DNA of 14,638 nt, taken from the NCBI GenBank assembly GCA_034722055.1, contig JAYENL010000033.1:1-14638 (forward strand). The letters are read 5' to 3'. The notes under the pieces are model-generated. The model was not told the DNA's origin. It saw nothing but the letters and a program-made list of their open reading frames with translations, and ran no database searches. The position numbers and the translations under genes were made by a program. Each line of letters starts with the position of its first letter. Positions within the stretch are counted from its first letter, which is position 1. Below, piece by piece: positions 3,821 to 14,482 of the stretch. The stretch is from Armatimonadota bacterium. Lineage in GTDB: Bacteria > Armatimonadota > Zipacnadia > Zipacnadales > UBA5352.

Positions 3821-6508
3821 ATGCTGACGGTGGTGGTCGTGGAGGACAACGAGAAGCTGCGCCCGGCGCTGGTGGATGGGCTGGGCAACACCGGCCAGGT
3901 GCAGGTGGTGGGCGCCTGCGAGTCGGGGGAGGAGGCGCTGGAGCTGTGCCTGGAACGGGAGCCGGACGCCGTCCTGATGGACGTGCAGCTTGAGGGGGAG
4001 ATGAACGGGATCGAGGCGGCGGTCGCGGTCCGCCGGGAGTTCCCGCGCCAGCCGGTGGTCTTCTACTCCATCCAGGATGACGACGCCTACTACCGGGCCT
4101 TCCGGCGCTCGGGGATCCTCAGCCACTACGCCTACGTGCGCAAGTCCAGCTACCTGCTGCCGGGGATGATCGTGCCGCTGCTGAGGGATGCCGTGGAGGG
4201 GAAGAGCTTCATCGAGCCGGAGATCGAGCAGCGGGTGCAGGAGGTGCGCGTCAAGGACGATCAGTCGCCGATGGCGCTGCTGGAGCCGAACGAGCAGGCC
4301 GTGGTGCGGATGCTGTGCATGGGGATGACCAACGAGCAGATCGCCGCCCGCATGGGCTTCCGGGACAAGCGCACCATCAGCCGCACCAACGGCCGCATCT
4401 ACGCGGCATGGGGGCTCTCGGAGACGGCCACCGACGAGAAGGTGGCGCGCACGCGGGCGGTGCTGATCAACGCCGAGCGCCGGACGGGAGGAGTGTGGCT
4501 GGCGGGCGGGGCGCTGCTGTCGGGGAGCATGTTCTTCATGCTGCAGGCGGCGGTGGCGTGGCGGGGGATGACGGGGATCGTGGCGGCGCTGGAGCTGCAG
4601 TGGCCGATGGGCTGGTTCATCGGCGCGGTGCTGCCGGTGGCCTGGTACGTGGCGATCCTGTGGCATGCGGGCTTCTGGGACCGCGACCCGTCGCCGCTGC
4701 GCCGGCGCCACGTGGGGTGGCTGATTGCGGTGCTGGCGCTGATGGCGGCCGTGCTGGTGCTGGGGTGGAAGGCCATGATCTACCCGTGGGATCTGCAGGT
4801 GGAGGGGCCGGCTCCGTTCGCGGAGCCGTCCGTGGCCGGGGTGCCGCTGCTGGCCATGGGCTATCCGGTGCTGATCGTGCTGGCGCTGGCACTGGCGCTG
4901 GACGTGTTGTGGCACCCGGCGCCCTCGGCCCGGCCGATGGTCTCGGTGGCCCGGCGGCGGGCGCGGGCGTGGCTGGCGGCGGCCTCGATCTCGCTGCTGG
5001 TGGTCAGCGTGCTGGTCGGCGCCATCATGCTGGGCGTGGCCATCGGGCGCCGGCCCATCGTCCCGAACGAGTGGGCCAGGCCCCTGGGGATGCCGGCCCT
5101 GGACGCCGCGCCGCCCATCGTGTGGGCGGACGTGGTGGTGACGGGGCTGGTGATGATGGCCGTGCTCTTCCTGGGCCAGGCCATCGTCTCCTACGAGATC
5201 TTCACCGGCAAGAGCCTCCCCCGCGGGGGCCTGAAGCGGCACTGGTACGCGGCGATCCTGCTGGCGGCCGCCTACGCCACGGTGGCGGGCTGGAGCGTGT
5301 CGGTGGAGCACGCGCCCTTCTACGGGCTGCTGCTGGCCACGCTGCTGATCACGGCCTTCTTCGCGCTCTTCAACTGGCGCTCGTACGTGGAGCACGACCG
5401 CCACATCCGCCGCCTGCGGCCCTTCGTGGCCAGTCCCCGGGTCTACGATGCCCTGTTGGGCGAGGCTGCGCCGGAGGTGGACGCCGGCGCGCCCTTCCAG
5501 GCGCTGTGCGCGGAGGTGCTGGGGGCCAGGTCGGCGGCTCTGGTGGCGGTGGGGCCGCTGGCGCAGCTCGCCGACCCCCCGCTGACGTGGCCCGAGGGCG
5601 CTGAGGCCCCGGAGAGCGTCGCCGGGATCACCGACCGTGCGCGCTCGCCGGAGCAGATGTCGCTGGCCATCGAGCCGGAGCGCTACGAGGGCGCTATGGT
5701 GGCGGTGCCGCTGTGGAGCGAGCGGGGGCTGATCGGGCTGCTGCTGCTGGGGGAGAAGGCCGGTGGCGGGCTGTACACGCAGGAGGAGGTGGAGATCGCG
5801 CGCTCGGTGGGCGAGCGGCTGATCGACACCGTGGCCGTGGCGCGGATGTCGTCCCGGCTGATGGCGCTGCAGCGGCGGCGGCTGGCGGAGGACCAGGTGG
5901 TGGATCGGCGCACCCGGCGGGTGCTGCATGACGAGGTGCTGCCCAAGCTTCACGCCACGATGCTGTCGCTGAGCTTCGCAGAGGAGGGCGGAGACGAGGA
6001 GGTGGTGGAGCGGCTGGCGGAGGTCCACTCCCAGGTCTCGGAGCTGCTGCACGAGATCCCCGTCTCGGACACCGAGGAGCTGGCGCGGGAGGGGCTGGTG
6101 GCGACACTCCGACGGGTGGTGGAGGACGAGTTCGCGGATGACTTCGAGGGCATCGAGTGGCGCATCGACGCCGAGGCCGAGCGCCGCGGCAGGGAGCTGT
6201 CGGACGTCCGGGCGGAGGTGCTGCTCTACGCCGCCCGGGAGGCGGTGCGCAATGCCGCACGCCATGGCCGCGGAGAGGACCCCGAGCGGCCGCTTCACCT
6301 CAGCATCGAGCTGGCAGCCTCGGGGGGCCTGGCGCTGACGATCGAGGACGACGGTGTCGGCTGTGCCGACGCGGCGCGAGCCGACGGCGGGCACGGCATC
6401 GCGCTGCACAGCACCATGATGGCGGTGGTGGGCGGGGAGTGGGCGATGGAGAGCGCGGACGGGCGATACACGCGGGTGACGCTATCGCTGCCCGGGGGCG
6501 GCTGGTAG
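3821..6508 (+). CDS. Fused NarL/LuxR-type response regulator (REC + HTH) and multi-TM sensor histidine kinase (GAF-like, HisKA_3-like, HATPase_c), 895 aa
   Basis: GGGAGGG RBS then MLTVVVVEDN; phosphoacceptor DAVLMDVQL; HTH LEPNEQAVVRMLCMGMTNEQIAARMG. About 8 hydrophobic helices follow, then VPLWSERGLIGLLLLGEK...YTQEE (GAF-like), H-box RVLHDEVLP, N-box EAVRNAARHG, G1 IEDDGVG and G2 GHGIAL. No stop between the RR and HK parts. Confidence 0.85.
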   Translation: MLTVVVVEDNEKLRPALVDGLGNTGQVQVVGACESGEEALELCLEREPDAVLMDVQLEGEMNGIEAAVAVRREFPRQPVVFYSIQDDDAYYRAFRRSGILSHYAYVRKSSYLLPGMIVPLLRDAVEGKSFIEPEIEQRVQEVRVKDDQSPMALLEPNEQAVVRMLCMGMTNEQIAARMGFRDKRTISRTNGRIYAAWGLSETATDEKVARTRAVLINAERRTGGVWLAGGALLSGSMFFMLQAAVAWRGMTGIVAALELQWPMGWFIGAVLPVAWYVAILWHAGFWDRDPSPLRRRHVGWLIAVLALMAAVLVLGWKAMIYPWDLQVEGPAPFAEPSVAGVPLLAMGYPVLIVLALALALDVLWHPAPSARPMVSVARRRARAWLAAASISLLVVSVLVGAIMLGVAIGRRPIVPNEWARPLGMPALDAAPPIVWADVVVTGLVMMAVLFLGQAIVSYEIFTGKSLPRGGLKRHWYAAILLAAAYATVAGWSVSVEHAPFYGLLLATLLITAFFALFNWRSYVEHDRHIRRLRPFVASPRVYDALLGEAAPEVDAGAPFQALCAEVLGARSAALVAVGPLAQLADPPLTWPEGAEAPESVAGITDRARSPEQMSLAIEPERYEGAMVAVPLWSERGLIGLLLLGEKAGGGLYTQEEVEIARSVGERLIDTVAVARMSSRLMALQRRRLAEDQVVDRRTRRVLHDEVLPKLHATMLSLSFAEEGGDEEVVERLAEVHSQVSELLHEIPVSDTEELAREGLVATLRRVVEDEFADDFEGIEWRIDAEAERRGRELSDVRAEVLLYAAREAVRNAARHGRGEDPERPLHLSIELAASGGLALTIEDDGVGCADAARADGGHGIALHSTMMAVVGGEWAMESADGRYTRVTLSLPGGGW

Positions 6509-6543
6509 CGGTGCGGTCGGCTGATGAGGGGTGCGTACGCAGA

Positions 6544-6569
6544 GGCGCCCGGCTGAGTAGCCGGGCGCC
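6544..6569. terminator. Hairpin between convergent HK and csp genes, probable bidirectional terminator
   Basis: GGCGCCCGGCT-gagt-AGCCGGGCGCC, perfect 11-bp stem between stops at 6508 (+) and 6592 (-). Confidence 0.6.
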
Positions 6570-6591
6570 CGTGTTCGCTGAGTGGGCAGCT

Positions 6592-6828
6592 CTACCACAG
6601 GTCGGGCGAGTCAACTGCCGACTCGGCCTCGGTCACGACGACGTTCGCCGCTCGCGGGCCCTTGGGATCCTCCTCAACGTCGAACTCGACCTTCGCGCCC
6701 TCGGCGAGGCTCTTGTAGCCCTCGCCCTCGATGGCGGAGTAATGCACGAACGCATCCTCGCCATCCTCGCGCTCGATAAAGCCGAAGCCCTTCGCGTCGT
6801 CGAACCACTTCACTGTTCCGGTCGCCAT
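6592..6828 (-). CDS. cspA: Cold-shock protein (CspA family), 78 aa
   Basis: [18 protein letters not shown] (RNP1), DAFVHYSAI (RNP2), GYKSLAEG and [16 protein letters not shown] before ATG 6828. Paralogue identity uncertain. Confidence 0.95.
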
Positions 6829-6945
6829 GCGTCTTGCCTCCAATGTCGGATCTTCGCAGCATCCCTGCTCGTCCGCCAGAAGACAAGTCCGCCAGCGCCC
6901 GAACAACGATCCTCCGCGCGGCCTATGCCGCGTTTCACTGCAAGC

Positions 6946-6974
6946 AGCTTACCACAAGACGTCGAGTGATGCAA
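6946..6974 (-). promoter_or_regulatory. Putative sigma70 promoter of csp, with a long 5' UTR
   Basis: Minus strand TTGCAT (6974-6969), 17-nt spacer ending TG-G, then TAAGCT (6951-6946). Implies a ~110-nt leader, typical of csp mRNAs. Confidence 0.6.
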
Positions 6975-7120
6975 GGTACCATCTGAGCGGGGTGGTCGCC
7001 GGCGCCGCACATGACACGTGGACTCATTCCCGGCAGGGGTCGGTACTGCCTGGCGGTCAGATCGCCCGGCACCAGCAGCGACCCGGCATGGATGTTGCCG
7101 TCTCCTGTCACCCGCACCGC

Positions 7121-8068
7121 CTATGGCTCTTCGCTGGCCGGCTGGCGCCCCCAGATCCAGACCTCCCGCAGCCCCGGGACCGGGCCCGCCCGCCGCATAT
7201 TCAGCCGCACGTAACGGGCCTCTCGACCGCCCAGTGCCAGGAGCAGATGTCCGGGCAGGTCGTACGGCCCCAGGCGCGGATCATCAATGGTCCCGGCCTC
7301 CTGCCAGGAGCCCTCCTCCGCAGTGGTACTGACCTCGGCGGTGATCCTCTCCCAGCGGTGCCTCTCCCTCTCCTGGTCATCGGTGGCCAGAGTGATGCTC
7401 TCCAGCACAAAGGGCCGGGTGAGGTCGAAGGTGATGCGTATGTCGTCCGTGCCGTAGTGCCACTTGACCGTTGTGTCGCTGCGATAGGCCTCTATCCCAT
7501 CGGTCAGCACACCGGAGGCCCCCGACTGCCGCTGGGGCGAACCCTCCGGGGCGTCCTCAGCGCGGAAGAATATCGGACCCTCAGTCACGCCGGTCACCTG
7601 ATCTTTGAAGCCCGCGTGCGGGTAGTCGGGGAACCTGCCGTAGGTGTAGCTGCCCGGCACGTGGGCGATACGCGCCGTCGGTCCTCCGTTGCCGGTCAGG
7701 CACAGGGGAGCCGGCATCTCGATCCTCTGCACCAGCCGCGGATCGACCCGTCCGGCCTCCATGGCGTGCTCGATCAGCACCTCGATCAACGCCTCGCGCG
7801 CGGCATCAGTGCGGGCGGCATCCGAGGGGTCGGATCGGACGTGTTCGACCCAGCGCTCGACCTCCTCCTCGCCCGCCGCCTCCCTGACCATGCCCAGCAG
7901 GCGGAAGTCCTCCGCGCCCTCGCGGAAAGCCTGACTGCGCACGCTCTCCACCAGGTGCCCATCGCGCGTGTCGTAGACGAAGGCGTAGTCGGATCTGACC
8001 GTGGCCTCGCCATCGGAGGTCACCTTGCGCCAGCCCCGGTCATCCCAGACCGAGCCGCCCTCCCAACA
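7121..8068 (-). pseudogene. 5'-truncated DUF4091-like (glycoside hydrolase-associated) protein with a C-terminal beta-sandwich/discoidin-like domain
   Basis: YD...LVESVRSQAFREGAEDFRLL resembles the DUF4091 S.R....REG.ED motif. LTDG...W...ITFDL...ARYVRL...LREVWIWG resembles the F5/8 type C fold. The first ~48 codons of the 8212 ORF lie in lower-GC DNA and look non-native. Confidence 0.55.
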
Positions 8069-8282
8069 AGTCCCGACCGAGATGGGCCGCCTGATACACT
8101 GCTCCCGGGTTTTGCTCATCTTGTAGGACCCGCACGATGCCCAAGTAGACAGCTCCAAGTTCTTCGTGGACATCCGAAAGACCCTCGAACAATAGTTGCT
8201 GCCGTCGGTCAAGCTTCATGACCTGTCCGTGCTCATCAACTTCTTCACCGATTTCTTTGTCATCTGTCTGATTGGACACCAC
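8040..8282 (-). pseudogene. 3'-truncated island gene, N-terminus resembling predicted pPIWI-associating/HEPN-like nuclease proteins
   Basis: ELGAVYLGIVRVLQDEQNPGAVYQAAHLGRDLL fits a remembered Y.G....L....NP.....AAH..REL pattern. The ORF then runs into high-GC DNA (GGRLGLG*) and stops. Family assignment is tentative. Confidence 0.4.
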
Positions 8283-8588
8283 ACTAACTCACCCCACCAA
8301 CCGTCCGTACGCAACTTCATCGCATTCCCAATTCGCTGCTGTCTCTACTTGCCTGACCAGTAAGCCCTGACGAAACTAAGCCGTTTCAAAGCCTCCATTC
8401 ATCTGCATTGTCGCCGTGTCCGTATGGGTTGCAGAGGACACTCGTTCCTCCCATCTTGCTGAAGCCCTGTGCCTCGTCCTGCTTGATCTGCGGTTCCGCT
8501 TCGCCCATGTCTTCTCCACCCTCTACCGGCACCGAACACCAGACGACCTTTCATACATCCGTTTTCGCCTCTCAGACCAGTATCTCAC

Positions 8589-9590
8589 TCAAGCCTGCGA
8601 CTCCCCCAACCGGAGTTGTCTCACCTGTGGCAGTTGCACGGGCTCGTCCCGCGTCTCATCTTTCAGCTCCTCGTACACTGACTCAGCCATATGCTCGCCG
8701 CCCTCCCCTAGGAATCGAAGTGCGGAGCCCACTACGTAATTCCTCCGTTTTTCGAAGGCCATCCACTTACGACCCAATTTCTCGGCAGCTGCTCCCGTCG
8801 TGTTCGAACCTGCAAAAATGTCTATCACTAAGTCGTCCCGATCGGTCAAGAACTTAATGAAGAACTCAGGTAGATCCTGTGGAAAGCGGGCGGGATGGCG
8901 CTTCAGACCTATTTCTCGACAAAGACGCAGGTACTGAGAATTGCTTTCCGTGTTCGGTATCTCCAATAGATTCGGCGGGATGGCTCCCCCTTTGTCCTCG
9001 CGAAAGCGATCACTGATATCGTGACCGGATGGACGTTTTTTGGGCGAGTAATAGTCATCTCCCTTCTTCAAGAGTTGCTTCATTCTCTCGGAGTATGGTT
9101 TGAGCACATTGCGCACATCTGCCTTTGGGAAATCAGTCTTTGAGAGCCACCATACTGTGTTGACCGCATCTTTCGCACGGATCTTCCGCTTGTTTACCCA
9201 CTCGATCGGCGATGGCAGTTTTGACGGGTTATACCAGAAGAACTCCTCCGCAAGCCTGAAATCCTGCTCATCACACAACCGGATAAGCAGTCGGTAGTTG
9301 TATAGTGACCTGACCGGCCTGCCCTTACGATAGGCTCCACCCAAATCTATAACAAAGCTGCCCTCATCCTTTATCACCCGTCGCACTTCAGAGGTAAAGT
9401 TGAGCAGCCAATCTACATAGTTGTCTTGATCTTTGTTGCCATATTCCTTTTCTCTCTGCAGGGCAAAGGGCGGCGACGTTAGCACGAGGTCCACAGAGTC
9501 ATCATCCAGTGACCTGAGCAGCGCCAACGCATCTCCCACATACGCTTCCCCGTGTGCAGTTTGGTACAATGGCATCGGTAGACTATCCAT
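8589..9590 (-). CDS. Beta-class amino DNA methyltransferase, close homologue of M.PvuII (N4-cytosine), 333 aa
   Basis: Motif IV TSPPFALQR precedes motif I DIFAGSNTTG. Segments recalled from M.PvuII are near-identical: NPSKLPSPIEWVNKRKIR.KDAVNTVWW.SKT, RPSGHDI, GG.IPPNLL and HPARFP..LPEFFI. ATG 9590 overlaps the upstream TGA (TGATG), with a GAGGAG RBS. Confidence 0.93.
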   Translation of the reverse strand: MDSLPMPLYQTAHGEAYVGDALALLRSLDDDSVDLVLTSPPFALQREKEYGNKDQDNYVDWLLNFTSEVRRVIKDEGSFVIDLGGAYRKGRPVRSLYNYRLLIRLCDEQDFRLAEEFFWYNPSKLPSPIEWVNKRKIRAKDAVNTVWWLSKTDFPKADVRNVLKPYSERMKQLLKKGDDYYSPKKRPSGHDISDRFREDKGGAIPPNLLEIPNTESNSQYLRLCREIGLKRHPARFPQDLPEFFIKFLTDRDDLVIDIFAGSNTTGAAAEKLGRKWMAFEKRRNYVVGSALRFLGEGGEHMAESVYEELKDETRDEPVQLPQVRQLRLGESQA

Positions 9591-11077
9591 CAATACTCCT
9601 CCACATTCCAGATCCAGCTTGTCATGATTTTCCAGAGTACAGTCACCGCAAAATAGACCTCCGGATCTTTTTCCCTCAAGCGCTCAATCTCACCAATATA
9701 CTCATCCTTGTCCTGTGTGCCAACCACATAAGCCACCCACTGCCGGGCATCATCATCAACTAATAGATCGATCATGTCATCAATCTCGAACTCCCCGGCA
9801 TTGCTCAGAGCCCACGCAATCCCAGGCCGCAACCTGTCGGGGGCCTCTGGGAACCGCTCGATGACCTCTGGCGTGAAATGCTCGCATACCTTGCCTAGAG
9901 CCCTGCAAGCCTCTACTCTTATACGATCCTCGACAGATGCGAAACTCTTGATCAAGGCCTCGATCGCCAGTTTGCTCCTCAGTTCTCCCAAGGCCCAAGC
10001 AGCTCCGGCACGTATGTCGGGGTGTTGTTCATCATCGACGAAAACGTCTATCAGCATTCTGCACGATCTATCACTCTCAATTTCTCCCAGGACAATTACC
10101 GCTTCAAGTCTATTCTGAAGGTAATCGTCACGCAGGCACTTCGCAATGAAATCATACCCCAACGCCTCTCCGCGCCGCGCCAGGCCCCCAGCCGCCTCCA
10201 AACGTACGTAAATGTGTTCTCCCTCGTCAGTCACCTTGGCAGCCAATGCATCAGTCACGTCACCCGACCGAATGGTACCCAGTGCCTTCACGCCTGTGTA
10301 CCTGTCAGTCAGAGATGGACTCTCGAGTGCCCTTATGTAGTCAGACCCTGTAGCAGATTCTTCACATTCAAATCCTTTCACGACAGGCACTACTGAAGCC
10401 AGGATCTGGTTTCTGTCCACCTCTTCGCCTTCCACTACCAGCGCCGACAGCTCCCTATCCTTCTTTTGCCTTTGCAGCGTGATGGTCCGTCCGTCGGATG
10501 CTCTTTCGTATTGGATTCGCTTCTCATCAACATTGGTTATGGTTCCCGCGGCGCTGGCTTTGCTGGTAGGCCAGATAATCCGTATCTCGAATCCTTCTTG
10601 CGCACCCTTTGGACGGCTGACGACCGCACTTCCCTCCTCTGCAGCCTTCCGAAGCGCCTCAACTCTCACATACTGTACAGGTCCAGCAGTCGTCCAAGCG
10701 ACCGGTTCCTCCCCATCCTTCTCACACGCGACCAGTCCAACGAAGTCTTCATCAGCCAGTCCGTAATCCCAGCCGCGCTCAGGGTCCGCCTCAGAATGAG
10801 ACATGGATATCTCTAGCTTGGTCTTCGCTCTGCTCTCCACACATCGCCCACAGGCTACACACAGGATGTCTGGAACTCTGATCCGCTTGATCTTGATGTT
10901 CTTCCAGATCTTGAAGCTGGTGGATCCTCGCTCCAGCTCTATGGGTTGATGTCCTTGTCCCTCCAAATCTGAGAGGACCGCGCGTGTACCCGTAGCACCC
11001 ATCGAGATCTTCTCAAGGAAGCTGGTATCCGACTTGAATGACCTTCTAATAGTACTTACCTCCTCTTCACCATACAA
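9590..11077 (-). CDS. HEAT-repeat protein with N-terminal putative PD-(D/E)xK nuclease domain; candidate restriction/defence effector
   Basis: N-terminal G..G...V...L...G helix and VPDILCVACGRCVESRAK. C-terminal repeats VRLEAAGGLAR, NRLEAVIVLGEI, IRAGAAWALGEL, IRVEACRALGKV and LRPGIAWALSNA. Coupled to the MTase. Start is TTG 11077 or ATT 11050. Confidence 0.8.
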   Translation of the reverse strand: MYGEEEVSTIRRSFKSDTSFLEKISMGATGTRAVLSDLEGQGHQPIELERGSTSFKIWKNIKIKRIRVPDILCVACGRCVESRAKTKLEISMSHSEADPERGWDYGLADEDFVGLVACEKDGEEPVAWTTAGPVQYVRVEALRKAAEEGSAVVSRPKGAQEGFEIRIIWPTSKASAAGTITNVDEKRIQYERASDGRTITLQRQKKDRELSALVVEGEEVDRNQILASVVPVVKGFECEESATGSDYIRALESPSLTDRYTGVKALGTIRSGDVTDALAAKVTDEGEHIYVRLEAAGGLARRGEALGYDFIAKCLRDDYLQNRLEAVIVLGEIESDRSCRMLIDVFVDDEQHPDIRAGAAWALGELRSKLAIEALIKSFASVEDRIRVEACRALGKVCEHFTPEVIERFPEAPDRLRPGIAWALSNAGEFEIDDMIDLLVDDDARQWVAYVVGTQDKDEYIGEIERLREKDPEVYFAVTVLWKIMTSWIWNVEEY

Positions 11078-11768
11078 AGGAACCAGCGCACCGACCTCAC
11101 GTCGTCTCCAGTATTTGTTTCTTGCATCATATTATGCCCAGTGACCATAGAGATTTAGTTTGATTCATGATTAAAAAGATTTCCGCAATCACAGAGAACG
11201 GTGAGAACACGTAGAGGTCAAGTCGCGTTTTGGCCAGACGCTTATCATACGGAGAAGCACGGATCCCCCCTACCGTCTCGTTCCCGGGTCCCCGGTCTCT
11301 CTTCTCCGCCTCGACAGTCGATACCTTCACAGGCGGCGCTTGGGAAGCTGCGCGCCCACAGCAGAGGCCGGAGCGGCCTCGCCGGAAGGGGAATCTGCAG
11401 ATCACTGGTGAGGCAGGAGACTGAGTCCGATGCGCAGGCGCTCCGCAGTTGACTCCGCGAAGAACTGATCGCCATCTTCGCCGGGAAGGACCAGGTCCGG
11501 CTGGCCTACTCGACTGTGGCCTGGTCGCGCGTTGCCATCCGCGAACGCAATCGCGTCTGTCCAACTCAACTCGGCTCGTGCCCGGACGCCGCTGCCCGTC
11601 TACAGAAGAATCCGACCCTGGCCGAGCGAACCTCGCGCCGAGACTGCGTACGTGATCCGGGATGGGAGGGCCGACTGGAGGCGCGGGAACGGCACGGCGA
11701 TGGGCGGTGCGTGCCGATGGCCGCGGCTGCTGGACAAGGTCGTGGCGCCCGTGAACCGGGGACCTCCT

Positions 11769-11955: not shown

Positions 11956-12363
11956 ATGGCCCGCATCCTGTGCGTTGATGATGAGCCGAACGTCCTTGCC
12001 GGGCTCAACCGCGCCCTGAGCCGTGAGGGGCACGAGGTGCTGACGGCTTCGAGCGAGGAGGAGGCGCTCGAGGCGGCCGCGCAGCATCGCCCCGACCTGA
12101 TGATCCTCGATGTCATGATGCCGGAGGGGACGGAGGGCTTCCACGTGGTGTGGAAGCTGCGGCAGATGGAGGAGGAAGGCGTGGCCCAGACCCCCGTCAT
12201 CATGGCCACGGGCATCCACGATAAGACCGAGCTGCGCTTCCGTCCCGACGAGTCGCTGGGGCCCGTCAACCCGGCGGAGTTCCTGCCGATCCAGGCGTGG
12301 CTTGACAAGCCCTACAGCAACGAGGAGCTCTACAGCGCGGTGGAGCGAGTGCTCGGCGGGTAA
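11956..12363 (+). CDS. Single-domain response regulator (receiver)
   Basis: MARILCVDDE, PDLMILDVMMP (phospho-Asp), PVIMATG and WLDKP. GGGAGAG RBS. Confidence 0.92.
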   Translation: MARILCVDDEPNVLAGLNRALSREGHEVLTASSEEEALEAAAQHRPDLMILDVMMPEGTEGFHVVWKLRQMEEEGVAQTPVIMATGIHDKTELRFRPDESLGPVNPAEFLPIQAWLDKPYSNEELYSAVERVLGG

Positions 12364-12562
12364 CGGGGGTGCATCGACTGGGGAGAGCATCTGGTTCCCC
12401 GCGTTCCTCTTCAGCCCATACACGAGGGGGAGATACCGGGGGGCGCCGACGCCGTTCGGTATGCGCCGCGCGGACGCTTTTCCATGCCGTCGAAAGGGGA
12501 TTGTGGCCCGCGCGGAGAAGCTCGCTCTCGCCAGCGTACCTCGCCACGGGAGCGCAGTGACG

Positions 12563-14482
12563 ATGGCACGACGTGTGGGGCTCTACGCGGTGGGCGTCAC
12601 CATCGGCCTGGCAAGCGGCCTTTTGACAGCCTGGCTGTGCCATCCCTCCATGCCCGCCGGGCTGATCAGTCAGCGGCTCTACGAGGGCGAGCTGGCCCTC
12701 TACGATTACCGCATGGCCTACGCCCCCTTCCCGGGCCGCAGCCCCGATATCGTCCTGGTCACCATCGACGAGGAGTCCTTCTCACAGCCGGAGCTGAGCG
12801 GTTGGCCATGGCCGCGCAGACACCACGCCACGGTGATCGGCACGCTGGCCGCAGGCGGGGCCAAGCTGATCGGCATCGACATGATCCTCTCCGGCACCAG
12901 CTCCGACGAGACGCCGCCGGAGGACGTAGACCCCTTCTTCTGGGAGCCGCCGCTGTCAGAGGATGACAGGAGGCTGGTGAAGGCGCTGGAGGAGGCGGGC
13001 AACGTCGTGCTGGCCATGGAGGTGGTCTCGGAGGCTGTGGCGGGGGATGAGACGGCCGGCGAGCTGATCGTCGCGAACTTCCCCCACCCCGACTTCGAGG
13101 ACGCCGCGCTGGGGCTGGCCGCCGCCAACCTCTCGAAGGACATCGATGGAACCGCTCGCCGATACCTCACCTCCGTCACACATCAGGATGAGCAGTTCCC
13201 CACGCTGGGCGTGGCCGTGGCGGCGCTGTCGAGGGGAGTGGAGCCCACTGCGCTCGCGGAGCGGGTGCTCGCCGCCGCGCACTCCTCACACCCGGCGCTG
13301 CCCGACAGGGACTATCTGGTCAACTACCGCGGCCCCATCGGCCGGGGCTTCGAGCGCATCCCATACTACCGCCTGCTCGATGACGACTTCGAGCCGGAGG
13401 TCGCAGGCAAGATCGTGCTCATCGGCGCGTCCGCCCGCGCCCTGCAGGACCTCTACGACACGCCGGTGTCCATGCGGGGGGTGCCGGGCACCTCACAGGG
13501 CTACGCGGAGATGGCCGGCGTCGAGATCATCGCGAACGCGGCTGACACCGTCCTCAGGGGTCGCTACGTGCTGCCCGTACCCGTGTGGCAGACGGTGCTG
13601 GTAACCCTGGCGCTGTCGCTGCTGATGGCCGCAGCGACCGTCTGGCTGCGCCCGCTGAAGGCCCTGCCGCTGGCGTTGCTGCCGCTCATGGCGCTGGCGG
13701 TCGTGCTGACCTTCGAGGTCATGTGGAGGCGCGGGATGTGGGTGCCGCTGATGCCGGTGGCGCTGGGCCTGACGCTGACCTACGTCCTGGAGACCGTGCA
13801 TCTGGAGCTGACCGCCGAGCGTGAGGAGAGGCGCATCCGGCAGGCGTGGTCGATGCGCGTCTCGCCGGAGGTGCTAAGGGTCATCCTCAGCAATCCGGGG
13901 ATGACCAAGGTGGGGGGCAGCCACGTGGAGGGGACGGTGTTCTTCTCCGACCTGCGCGACTTCACGAGCTTCTGTCATAGCTGTCCGCCGGAGGACGTCG
14001 TGGAGCAGGTCAACACATACCTGACCGCGTGCACGGAGATCATCCGGAACCACGGGGGGACTGTGCACAAGTTCATCGGCGACGGCGTCATGGCCGTGTT
14101 CGGCGACCCCGTGCCGCAGGAGGATCACGCCGATCGGGCGCTGGCCGCCAGCGTGGAGATCCAGCGCCGCATGGCCCAGCTGCGGGAAGCGGCCGGGGAG
14201 GGGGACTGGCCCATGCACGTGCGCATCGGCCTGCACAGCGGCGAGCTGGTCGCCGGCGACATCGGCTCGGAGAACATGCTGGAGTACACGGTGATGGGCG
14301 ACACCGTGAGCATCGCCTCACGACTTGAGGCCCTCAACAAGGAGCTCGGCACGCAGATACTCATGAGCGAGGACACCGCCGCGCTGCTGGACAGCGCGAC
14401 GGCGGTGCGGACTCTGGGCGAGGTGGAGGTGCGGGGCCGGCCGGAGCCGCTGGAGGTCTACACGGTCGAAGCCGAGCCATGA
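12563..14482 (+). CDS. CHASE2-domain class III adenylate/guanylate cyclase, 639 aa
   Basis: N-terminal TM, then CHASE2 motifs IVLVTIDEES, WPWPR..HA, DIDGTARR, GKIVLIGA and GVEIIANA, three TM helices, and cyclase motifs FFSDLRDFT, HKFIGDGVMAVFG, RIGLHSG and EYTVMGDTVSIASRLE. Start ATG 12563 or GTG 12557 after GGGAG. Confidence 0.93.
   Translation: MARRVGLYAVGVTIGLASGLLTAWLCHPSMPAGLISQRLYEGELALYDYRMAYAPFPGRSPDIVLVTIDEESFSQPELSGWPWPRRHHATVIGTLAAGGAKLIGIDMILSGTSSDETPPEDVDPFFWEPPLSEDDRRLVKALEEAGNVVLAMEVVSEAVAGDETAGELIVANFPHPDFEDAALGLAAANLSKDIDGTARRYLTSVTHQDEQFPTLGVAVAALSRGVEPTALAERVLAAAHSSHPALPDRDYLVNYRGPIGRGFERIPYYRLLDDDFEPEVAGKIVLIGASARALQDLYDTPVSMRGVPGTSQGYAEMAGVEIIANAADTVLRGRYVLPVPVWQTVLVTLALSLLMAAATVWLRPLKALPLALLPLMALAVVLTFEVMWRRGMWVPLMPVALGLTLTYVLETVHLELTAEREERRIRQAWSMRVSPEVLRVILSNPGMTKVGGSHVEGTVFFSDLRDFTSFCHSCPPEDVVEQVNTYLTACTEIIRNHGGTVHKFIGDGVMAVFGDPVPQEDHADRALAASVEIQRRMAQLREAAGEGDWPMHVRIGLHSGELVAGDIGSENMLEYTVMGDTVSIASRLEALNKELGTQILMSEDTAALLDSATAVRTLGEVEVRGRPEPLEVYTVEAEP

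Follow-up and report, generated by a model that had tools for sequence, protein, structure and literature searches.

A HEAT-repeat protein encoded beside an M.PvuII-like methyltransferase is a probable restriction endonuclease for CAGCTG

Which enzyme cuts DNA at a locus that encodes a close relative of the PvuII methyltransferase and neither of its usual companions? The question is raised by a 14,638-nt stretch of an Armatimonadota genome (assembly GCA_034722055.1, contig JAYENL010000033.1; the whole stretch is called the window here), where the gene of an M.PvuII-like DNA methyltransferase (MTase) overlaps that of a HEAT-repeat protein. A first-pass annotation, made from the sequence alone, had proposed a restriction-type nuclease guarded by the MTase at CAGCTG. 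Four lines of evidence support this proposal: the fold model of the nuclease, its linkage to an MTase in every informative locus sampled from its subfamily, relatives that occupy the slot of pvuIIR, and avoidance of the site. The gene pair is probably a Type II restriction–modification system that targets CAGCTG, and its endonuclease would belong to a family that is apparently undescribed.

The gene pair and its methyltransferase

The open reading frames (ORFs) and the GC profile bear out two co-oriented genes with a TGATG overlap in an island of lower GC content. The overlap suggests that the two genes are translationally coupled. The island has a GC content of ~52% overall (45–62% per 100 nt) compared with ~68–70% outside it, and no flanking repeats above chance level were found. 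Neither a C (controller) gene nor an R.PvuII gene is present in the window, as the annotation had also noted. The stretch is covered without any difference by contigs from runs X1 and X2, both of a single study that may itself be the source of the window.

The window MTase is indeed very like M.PvuII. It matches PDB entry 1boo (E 1e-129), is 62.8% identical to the pPvu1 enzyme, and falls into one clade with M.PvuII and all 77 sampled HEAT-linked MTases (quick IQ-TREE, SH-aLRT 100). The PADLOC model MTase_II is matched with an E value of 8e-151. The protein carries the motifs TSPPF, NPSKLPSPIEWVNKRK and DIFAGS. The SPPF motif precedes FxGxG, as in β-class N4-methylcytosine (m4C) MTases, and the protein is orthologous to M.PvuII. 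The N4 class of M.PvuII was taken from the PDB title. From this relationship, the window MTase would be expected to make m4C at CAGCTG, the PvuII site (PMC4081073), and to methylate the host's own sites, while the HEAT-repeat protein would cut unmethylated CAGCTG on incoming DNA. PvuII cleavage is also blocked by an N6-methyladenine MTase (PMC3459991). The host genome encodes another M.PvuII-like MTase (51%; contig C305, 17120–18040), which falls outside the M.PvuII clade and follows a PIN-like gene near the contig end.

A predicted nuclease domain ahead of HEAT repeats

The AlphaFold2 (AF2) model of the whole protein (pLDDT 90, pTM 0.84) is made of an α/β domain (residues 17–170), a β domain (171–235), five helical hairpins (244–408) and further helices to residue 492. 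The hairpins, together with a match to Pfam HEAT_2 (E 2e-17), agree with the five or more HEAT-like repeats seen at first pass. Folded on its own, the N-terminal domain reached a pLDDT of 83. For this domain, no Foldseek match reached E ≤ 0.001; the top rows were Hjc/Hje (probability up to 0.97), followed by SfiI, DpnI and MspI. The VIA scores over 48,161 chains were 7.8 for NhoI, 7.4 for I-Ssp6803I, 7.3 for both Hjc and MspI, 7.0 for D212 and 6.0 for PvuII. These fold scores are modest, and it is in combination with the active-site motif that they support a PD-(D/E)xK core, the outcome that the annotation had expected of the N-terminus. On this model, the protein would combine a nuclease fold of known type with catalytic residues that are conserved, as Type II enzymes do.

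The proposed active-site residues P69-D70, E81, R83 and K85 sit at these numbers when counted from TTG 11077. An alignment of 109 relatives shows D70, E81, R83 and K85 in every one, and P69 in at least 90%. A search with residues 8–240 returned 1,280 clusters at E ≤ 0.001 (the best 120 are mostly of 484–496 aa), and a profile of residues 11–170 returned 377 representatives at 50% clustering. We aligned 81 diverse members (two seeds, and 79 of 465–535 aa among the 144 new representatives listed), which are 24–46% identical to the window nuclease. In all 81, D70, E81 and K85 are invariant, as are K64, R67, S93, D111, E164, W58 and W169; C76 shows no conservation. Position 83 is an arginine in 74 members and a lysine in seven, and the lysine gives the canonical E-x-K. 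R83 rather than K85 therefore likely holds the position of the canonical lysine. In the predicted core, D70 and E81 would bind the metal, and R83 (lysine in some members) and K85 would lie at the phosphate.

Could the arginine mean that the protein has no catalytic activity and serves as a partner that regulates or targets an orphan MTase? The coupling to the MTase and the odd start codon of the window copy (see below) would also suit such a role. Against this, both acidic metal-ligand positions are invariant, and the family pairs with two unrelated MTases in varied layouts, often divergently transcribed. Moreover, among the best 80 of 553 loci ranked by closeness to M.PvuII, M.PvuII-clade MTases work without a HEAT protein in 75, where the partner is R.PvuII, accompanied by a C gene in 71. 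We consider a dead partner hardly credible.

The nuclease and β domains are basic in the 109 relatives (median net charge of the β domain +4), and the HEAT and C-terminal parts are acidic (medians −6 and −4). A basic front and an acidic back fit DNA contact by the front and scaffolding by the back. The enzyme would probably act as a homodimer that cuts inside the palindrome, leaving blunt ends like its β-branch fold neighbours, with additional backbone contacts from the basic β domain. The acidic HEAT repeats and C-terminal helices, which include the conserved W447 and W488, may serve as a constitutive scaffold, for a dimer or a clamp, rather than as a sensor; on this step alone we put even odds. 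The β domain has a weak similarity (TM 0.36–0.39) to the barrel-sandwich hybrid of RNA polymerase β, which we regard as no more than a lead.

No nuclease model of Pfam, NCBIfam, PADLOC 2.0 or PHROGs matched the nuclease domain. The matches of the protein in the first three are generic HEAT models (over residues 225–458 in NCBIfam and PADLOC), and PHROGs gave none. The annotation knew of no characterised enzyme of this architecture, and we found none in the libraries and papers searched. Likewise, the literature listings and abstract openings searched gave no description of the family; the restriction-enzyme-table supplements of PMC2441816 or REBASE might hold a member that is known there only by the name of its ORF. 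In the ESM Atlas, an unnamed cluster of 157-aa proteins (116 members) resembles residues 12–164 by predicted structure and is possibly a stand-alone relative of the nuclease core.

Linkage, site avoidance and exchange with R.PvuII

The close relatives of the window nuclease (subfamily A) were sampled as 82 loci, from nine and the best 80 of 202. The MTase gene lies directly downstream in 76, across an N gap in one, and five end at a contig edge. The neighbourhood thus shows the linkage to MTases on which the annotation had staked its case, in 77 of 77 informative loci, with separate adjacent genes as in Type II systems. In 76 of the 82, the MTase start lies at most ~40 nt from where the nuclease gene ends. 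No C gene is conserved across these loci and no third gene recurs around them, the largest neighbour cluster covering five. The named hosts include archaea, Chloroflexota, Nitrospirota, Verrucomicrobiota, Bacteroidota and others. In the order of the present host, the nuclease was found in three of 41 genomes, always with the MTase.

A second HEAT nuclease, 32% identical to that of the window (profile probability 100), was identified in Sphingomonas gilva (locus 5042–8597), where it coexists with a whole PvuII system. A search with this subfamily B gave 930 clusters, overlapping the set of subfamily A. Its best 80 of 143 loci fall into several layouts. In 57, the partner is an unrelated 587-aa FxGxG…DPPF MTase, and 54 of these have a C gene. 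In 15, an M.PvuII-like MTase diverges from a C–nuclease operon, which is the pPvu1 layout, neither present in the window nor conserved in the 82 subfamily A loci. Five gut loci (L246, L248, L249, L250 and L253) combine the HEAT gene and an MTase with a convergent R.PvuII-like gene, intact in four and broken in L248, whose cassette comes after a serine-recombinase-like gene. Two of the remaining loci have no visible partner, and one has a C gene only. Several subfamily B genes are frameshifted. The 587-aa MTase contains CxxC motifs, and its best PADLOC matches are MTase_II and PglXI; it likely protects the same site as the M.PvuII clade. In layout, the dual loci resemble the C-less convergent PvuII-like systems described from Lachnospiraceae (PMC3850674).

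Partners have been exchanged repeatedly. In a 68-row FastTree, R.PvuII-linked and HEAT-B-linked MTases interleave, and the starred branches force at least four changes. The approximately unbiased (AU) test rejects a single R.PvuII clade (p 0.0004), on 25 rows chosen after the 68-row tree was seen, in which starred branches force only two changes. In the nuclease tree, subfamily B switches MTase type at least four times. The HEAT nuclease is a non-orthologous, interchangeable alternative to R.PvuII. Because the family swaps between two unrelated MTases, a fixed nuclease–MTase complex is argued against, and the earlier suggestion that the HEAT solenoid binds the MTase finds no support.

Of 64 palindromes, none is avoided more strongly in the host genome than CAGCTG, whose observed/expected ratio (O/E) is 0.044. 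In subfamily A it again ranks first in avoidance, with 4 of 68 in the cassettes and 18 of 187 in the flanking DNA. R.PvuII loci have 38 of 262. In subfamily B loci with the 587-aa MTase it stands at 67 of 259, second to CCTAGG in avoidance. The genome-wide median of CAGCTG/CAGCTC is 0.12 for subfamily A (n=20, picked for spread from the 82 loci), 0.14 for B with the 587-aa MTase (n=16), 0.29 for B with M.PvuII-like MTases (n=5), 0.61 for R.PvuII carriers (n=9) and 0.99 for a control phylum (n=60, unscreened for carriers). The MTase clade and the avoidance agree on CAGCTG, although the avoidance extends across the order of the host (see below). GTCGAC is avoided as strongly in the host genome (O/E 0.05), and likewise in many relatives, which points to a SalI-type system, present or past.

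The nuclease might instead nick, cut away from the site, read a degenerate site or depend on modification, with the MTase protecting indirectly. Five other rows score within 1 Z of NhoI, the highest in the fold comparison, and a methyl-directed enzyme would not require a linked MTase. CMGCKG as the target is not supported, as CAGCGG and CCGCGG have O/E values of 0.96 and 0.93 in the host and CAGCGG occurs 587 times in the loci versus 562 expected. We judge any such mode very unlikely.

A different possibility is a gated nuclease. It would recognise unmethylated CAGCTG but be switched on, or kept working, once the HEAT solenoid binds a phage protein (a DNA mimic or an anti-restriction factor), backing up PvuII-type enzymes. 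The ~490-aa build is retained across 24% to 66% identity, the short matches inspected looking like cut or frameshifted pieces. Several HEAT and C-terminal residues (K264, E294, E325, E332, R356, W361, W447 and W488) are 87–97% conserved in the 81 members. The nuclease shares one MTase with an intact R.PvuII-like gene in four of the five gut loci, besides its coexistence with the PvuII system of S. gilva. This long build, never shed in the sequences seen, and the coexistence at some loci are the main reasons to keep a sensor version in play. On the other hand, in 15 loci the nuclease simply stands in for R.PvuII under C control, its carriers avoid the site no less strongly than R.PvuII carriers do, as expected for a constitutive cutter, and conservation is lower in the HEAT part than in the nuclease (0.40 vs 0.56). 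The five dual loci form one clade and hence count as one event. Gating is unlikely in our view. Only slightly better placed, and still improbable, is a broader scheme: a widespread, so far unrecognised class of restriction enzyme whose solenoid would detect or withstand the counter-defence of phages and thereby gate the CAGCTG nuclease, within a mix-and-match kit of two unrelated nucleases, two unrelated MTases and optional C control for one site.

Several observations temper the reading of the avoidance. CAGCTG is likewise scarce in relatives of the host in which no cassette was found (n=38), whose median is 0.093; the three carriers have a median of 0.017. The avoidance is thus common to the whole order; it supports the target of the family rather than activity of the window copy and tells nothing direct about the nuclease. 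Two subfamily A carriers show no avoidance, and the window MTase gene itself holds one CAGCTG, at 8786. The start of the nuclease gene is odd. Most relatives read begin with ATG, GTG or TTG a few codons around codon 8 of the window ORF, the family start position; here that codon is AGT and there is no ATG or GTG. Translation must therefore begin at TTG 11077, seven codons upstream of the usual start and with no Shine–Dalgarno (SD) sequence seen, or at ATT 11050, 8 nt behind GGAGG (11063–11059). A 24-codon ORF (ATG 11130 to TAA 11056) stops across this SD sequence. No indel was found at the start region in contigs of runs X1, X2 and X4 (again one study, possibly the source). The start may lower nuclease output or signal early decay.

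Table 1. Features of the gene pair and its surroundings (window positions).
Feature	Position	Strand	Remarks
Predicted restriction endonuclease gene	9590..11077	-	495 aa counted from TTG 11077; family ~488 aa
M.PvuII-clade N4-cytosine DNA MTase gene	8589..9590	-	333 aa from ATG
TGATG stop/start overlap of the two genes	9588..9592	-	
Low-GC island with the cassette	~8100..11250		
Nuclease start region	11048..11130	-	
Predicted PD-(D/E)xK nuclease core	10568..11047	-	residues 11-170
Small all-β domain	10373..10567	-	residues 171-235
Five clear HEAT (alphaRep/PBS-lyase-like) repeats and C-terminal helices	9593..10348	-	residues 244-495

A TTGGCA-17-TATATT element lies inside the nuclease gene (9723–9695, minus strand), 105 nt ahead of the MTase start. 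It could give MTase expression a head start; the scan that found it is at chance level. At the island edge, an 80-aa ORF fragment without library matches (8040–8282, minus strand) overlaps the start of a GH123-like/carbohydrate-binding ORF (7121–8212, minus strand), which seemingly lacks its N-terminus. Insertion of the cassette may have cut these two genes. The other neighbours are ordinary by inspection (283–1023, 1187–1978, 6592–6906 and 11956–14482): sulfotransferase-like, LarB-like, cold-shock protein, response regulator and CHASE2/adenylate cyclase-like.

Comparison with known systems

More than 1,200 clusters, drawn from archaea and a wide range of bacterial phyla, have no annotation beyond 'HEAT repeat protein', and the MTases beside them would for that reason read as orphans with the model sets tested. 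If our reading is true, they represent a new restriction-enzyme architecture and a natural family of PvuII neoschizomers or isoschizomers. They would also show clearly how, in the C-regulated system that has been studied best, one enzyme is replaced time and again by a non-orthologous one. The cassette may also help to explain the deep CAGCTG avoidance in lineages like that of the host. It would then be asked why one site has two cutters and two methylases, what role E-x-R-x-K plays, and how a C-less operon with R before M settles in a new host.

The predicted core fold and the PD…E-x-K-type site are like those of the β-branch Type IIP PD-(D/E)xK enzymes (EcoRV, MspI, HincII, BglI, NaeI and PvuII; PMC4081073) and of Hjc/Hje, but the motif of the window nuclease is E-x-R-x-K. 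At ~55 kDa by length, it is above the 18–42 kDa given for Type IIP subunits in the same review, whose main text has no mention of 'HEAT repeat' or 'armadillo'. A HEAT-like helical domain within a restriction-related system is also found in CnuC of the Type III-A CoCoNuTs (PMC11090510). Those systems derive from Type IV McrBC, their proteins in question have lost the PD-(D/E)xK domain, and the text has no mention of PvuII. The MTaX1-HNH systems of Thiothrix and Roseivivax plasmids likewise place a nuclease unrelated to R.PvuII next to an MTase, here 55–59% identical to M.PvuII. Their chemistry is that of HNH enzymes, and the MTases beside them do not belong to the M.PvuII/HEAT clade and have another conserved segment; with these nucleases (loci L095 and L097), the partners of this MTase group are of three types.

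The closest comparison is the PvuII system itself, of which three classes are described (PMC3850674). R.PvuII has 157 aa, compared with ~490 aa for the HEAT nuclease, which adds the β domain and the HEAT repeats. The two share no sequence similarity: hhalign gave a probability of 0.2% (E 0.35), and PF09225, a model that does find true members, gave no match at E ≤ 1. In pPvu1, C lies upstream of R and M is divergent, whereas in the window R and M are co-oriented in a single operon that lacks a C gene.
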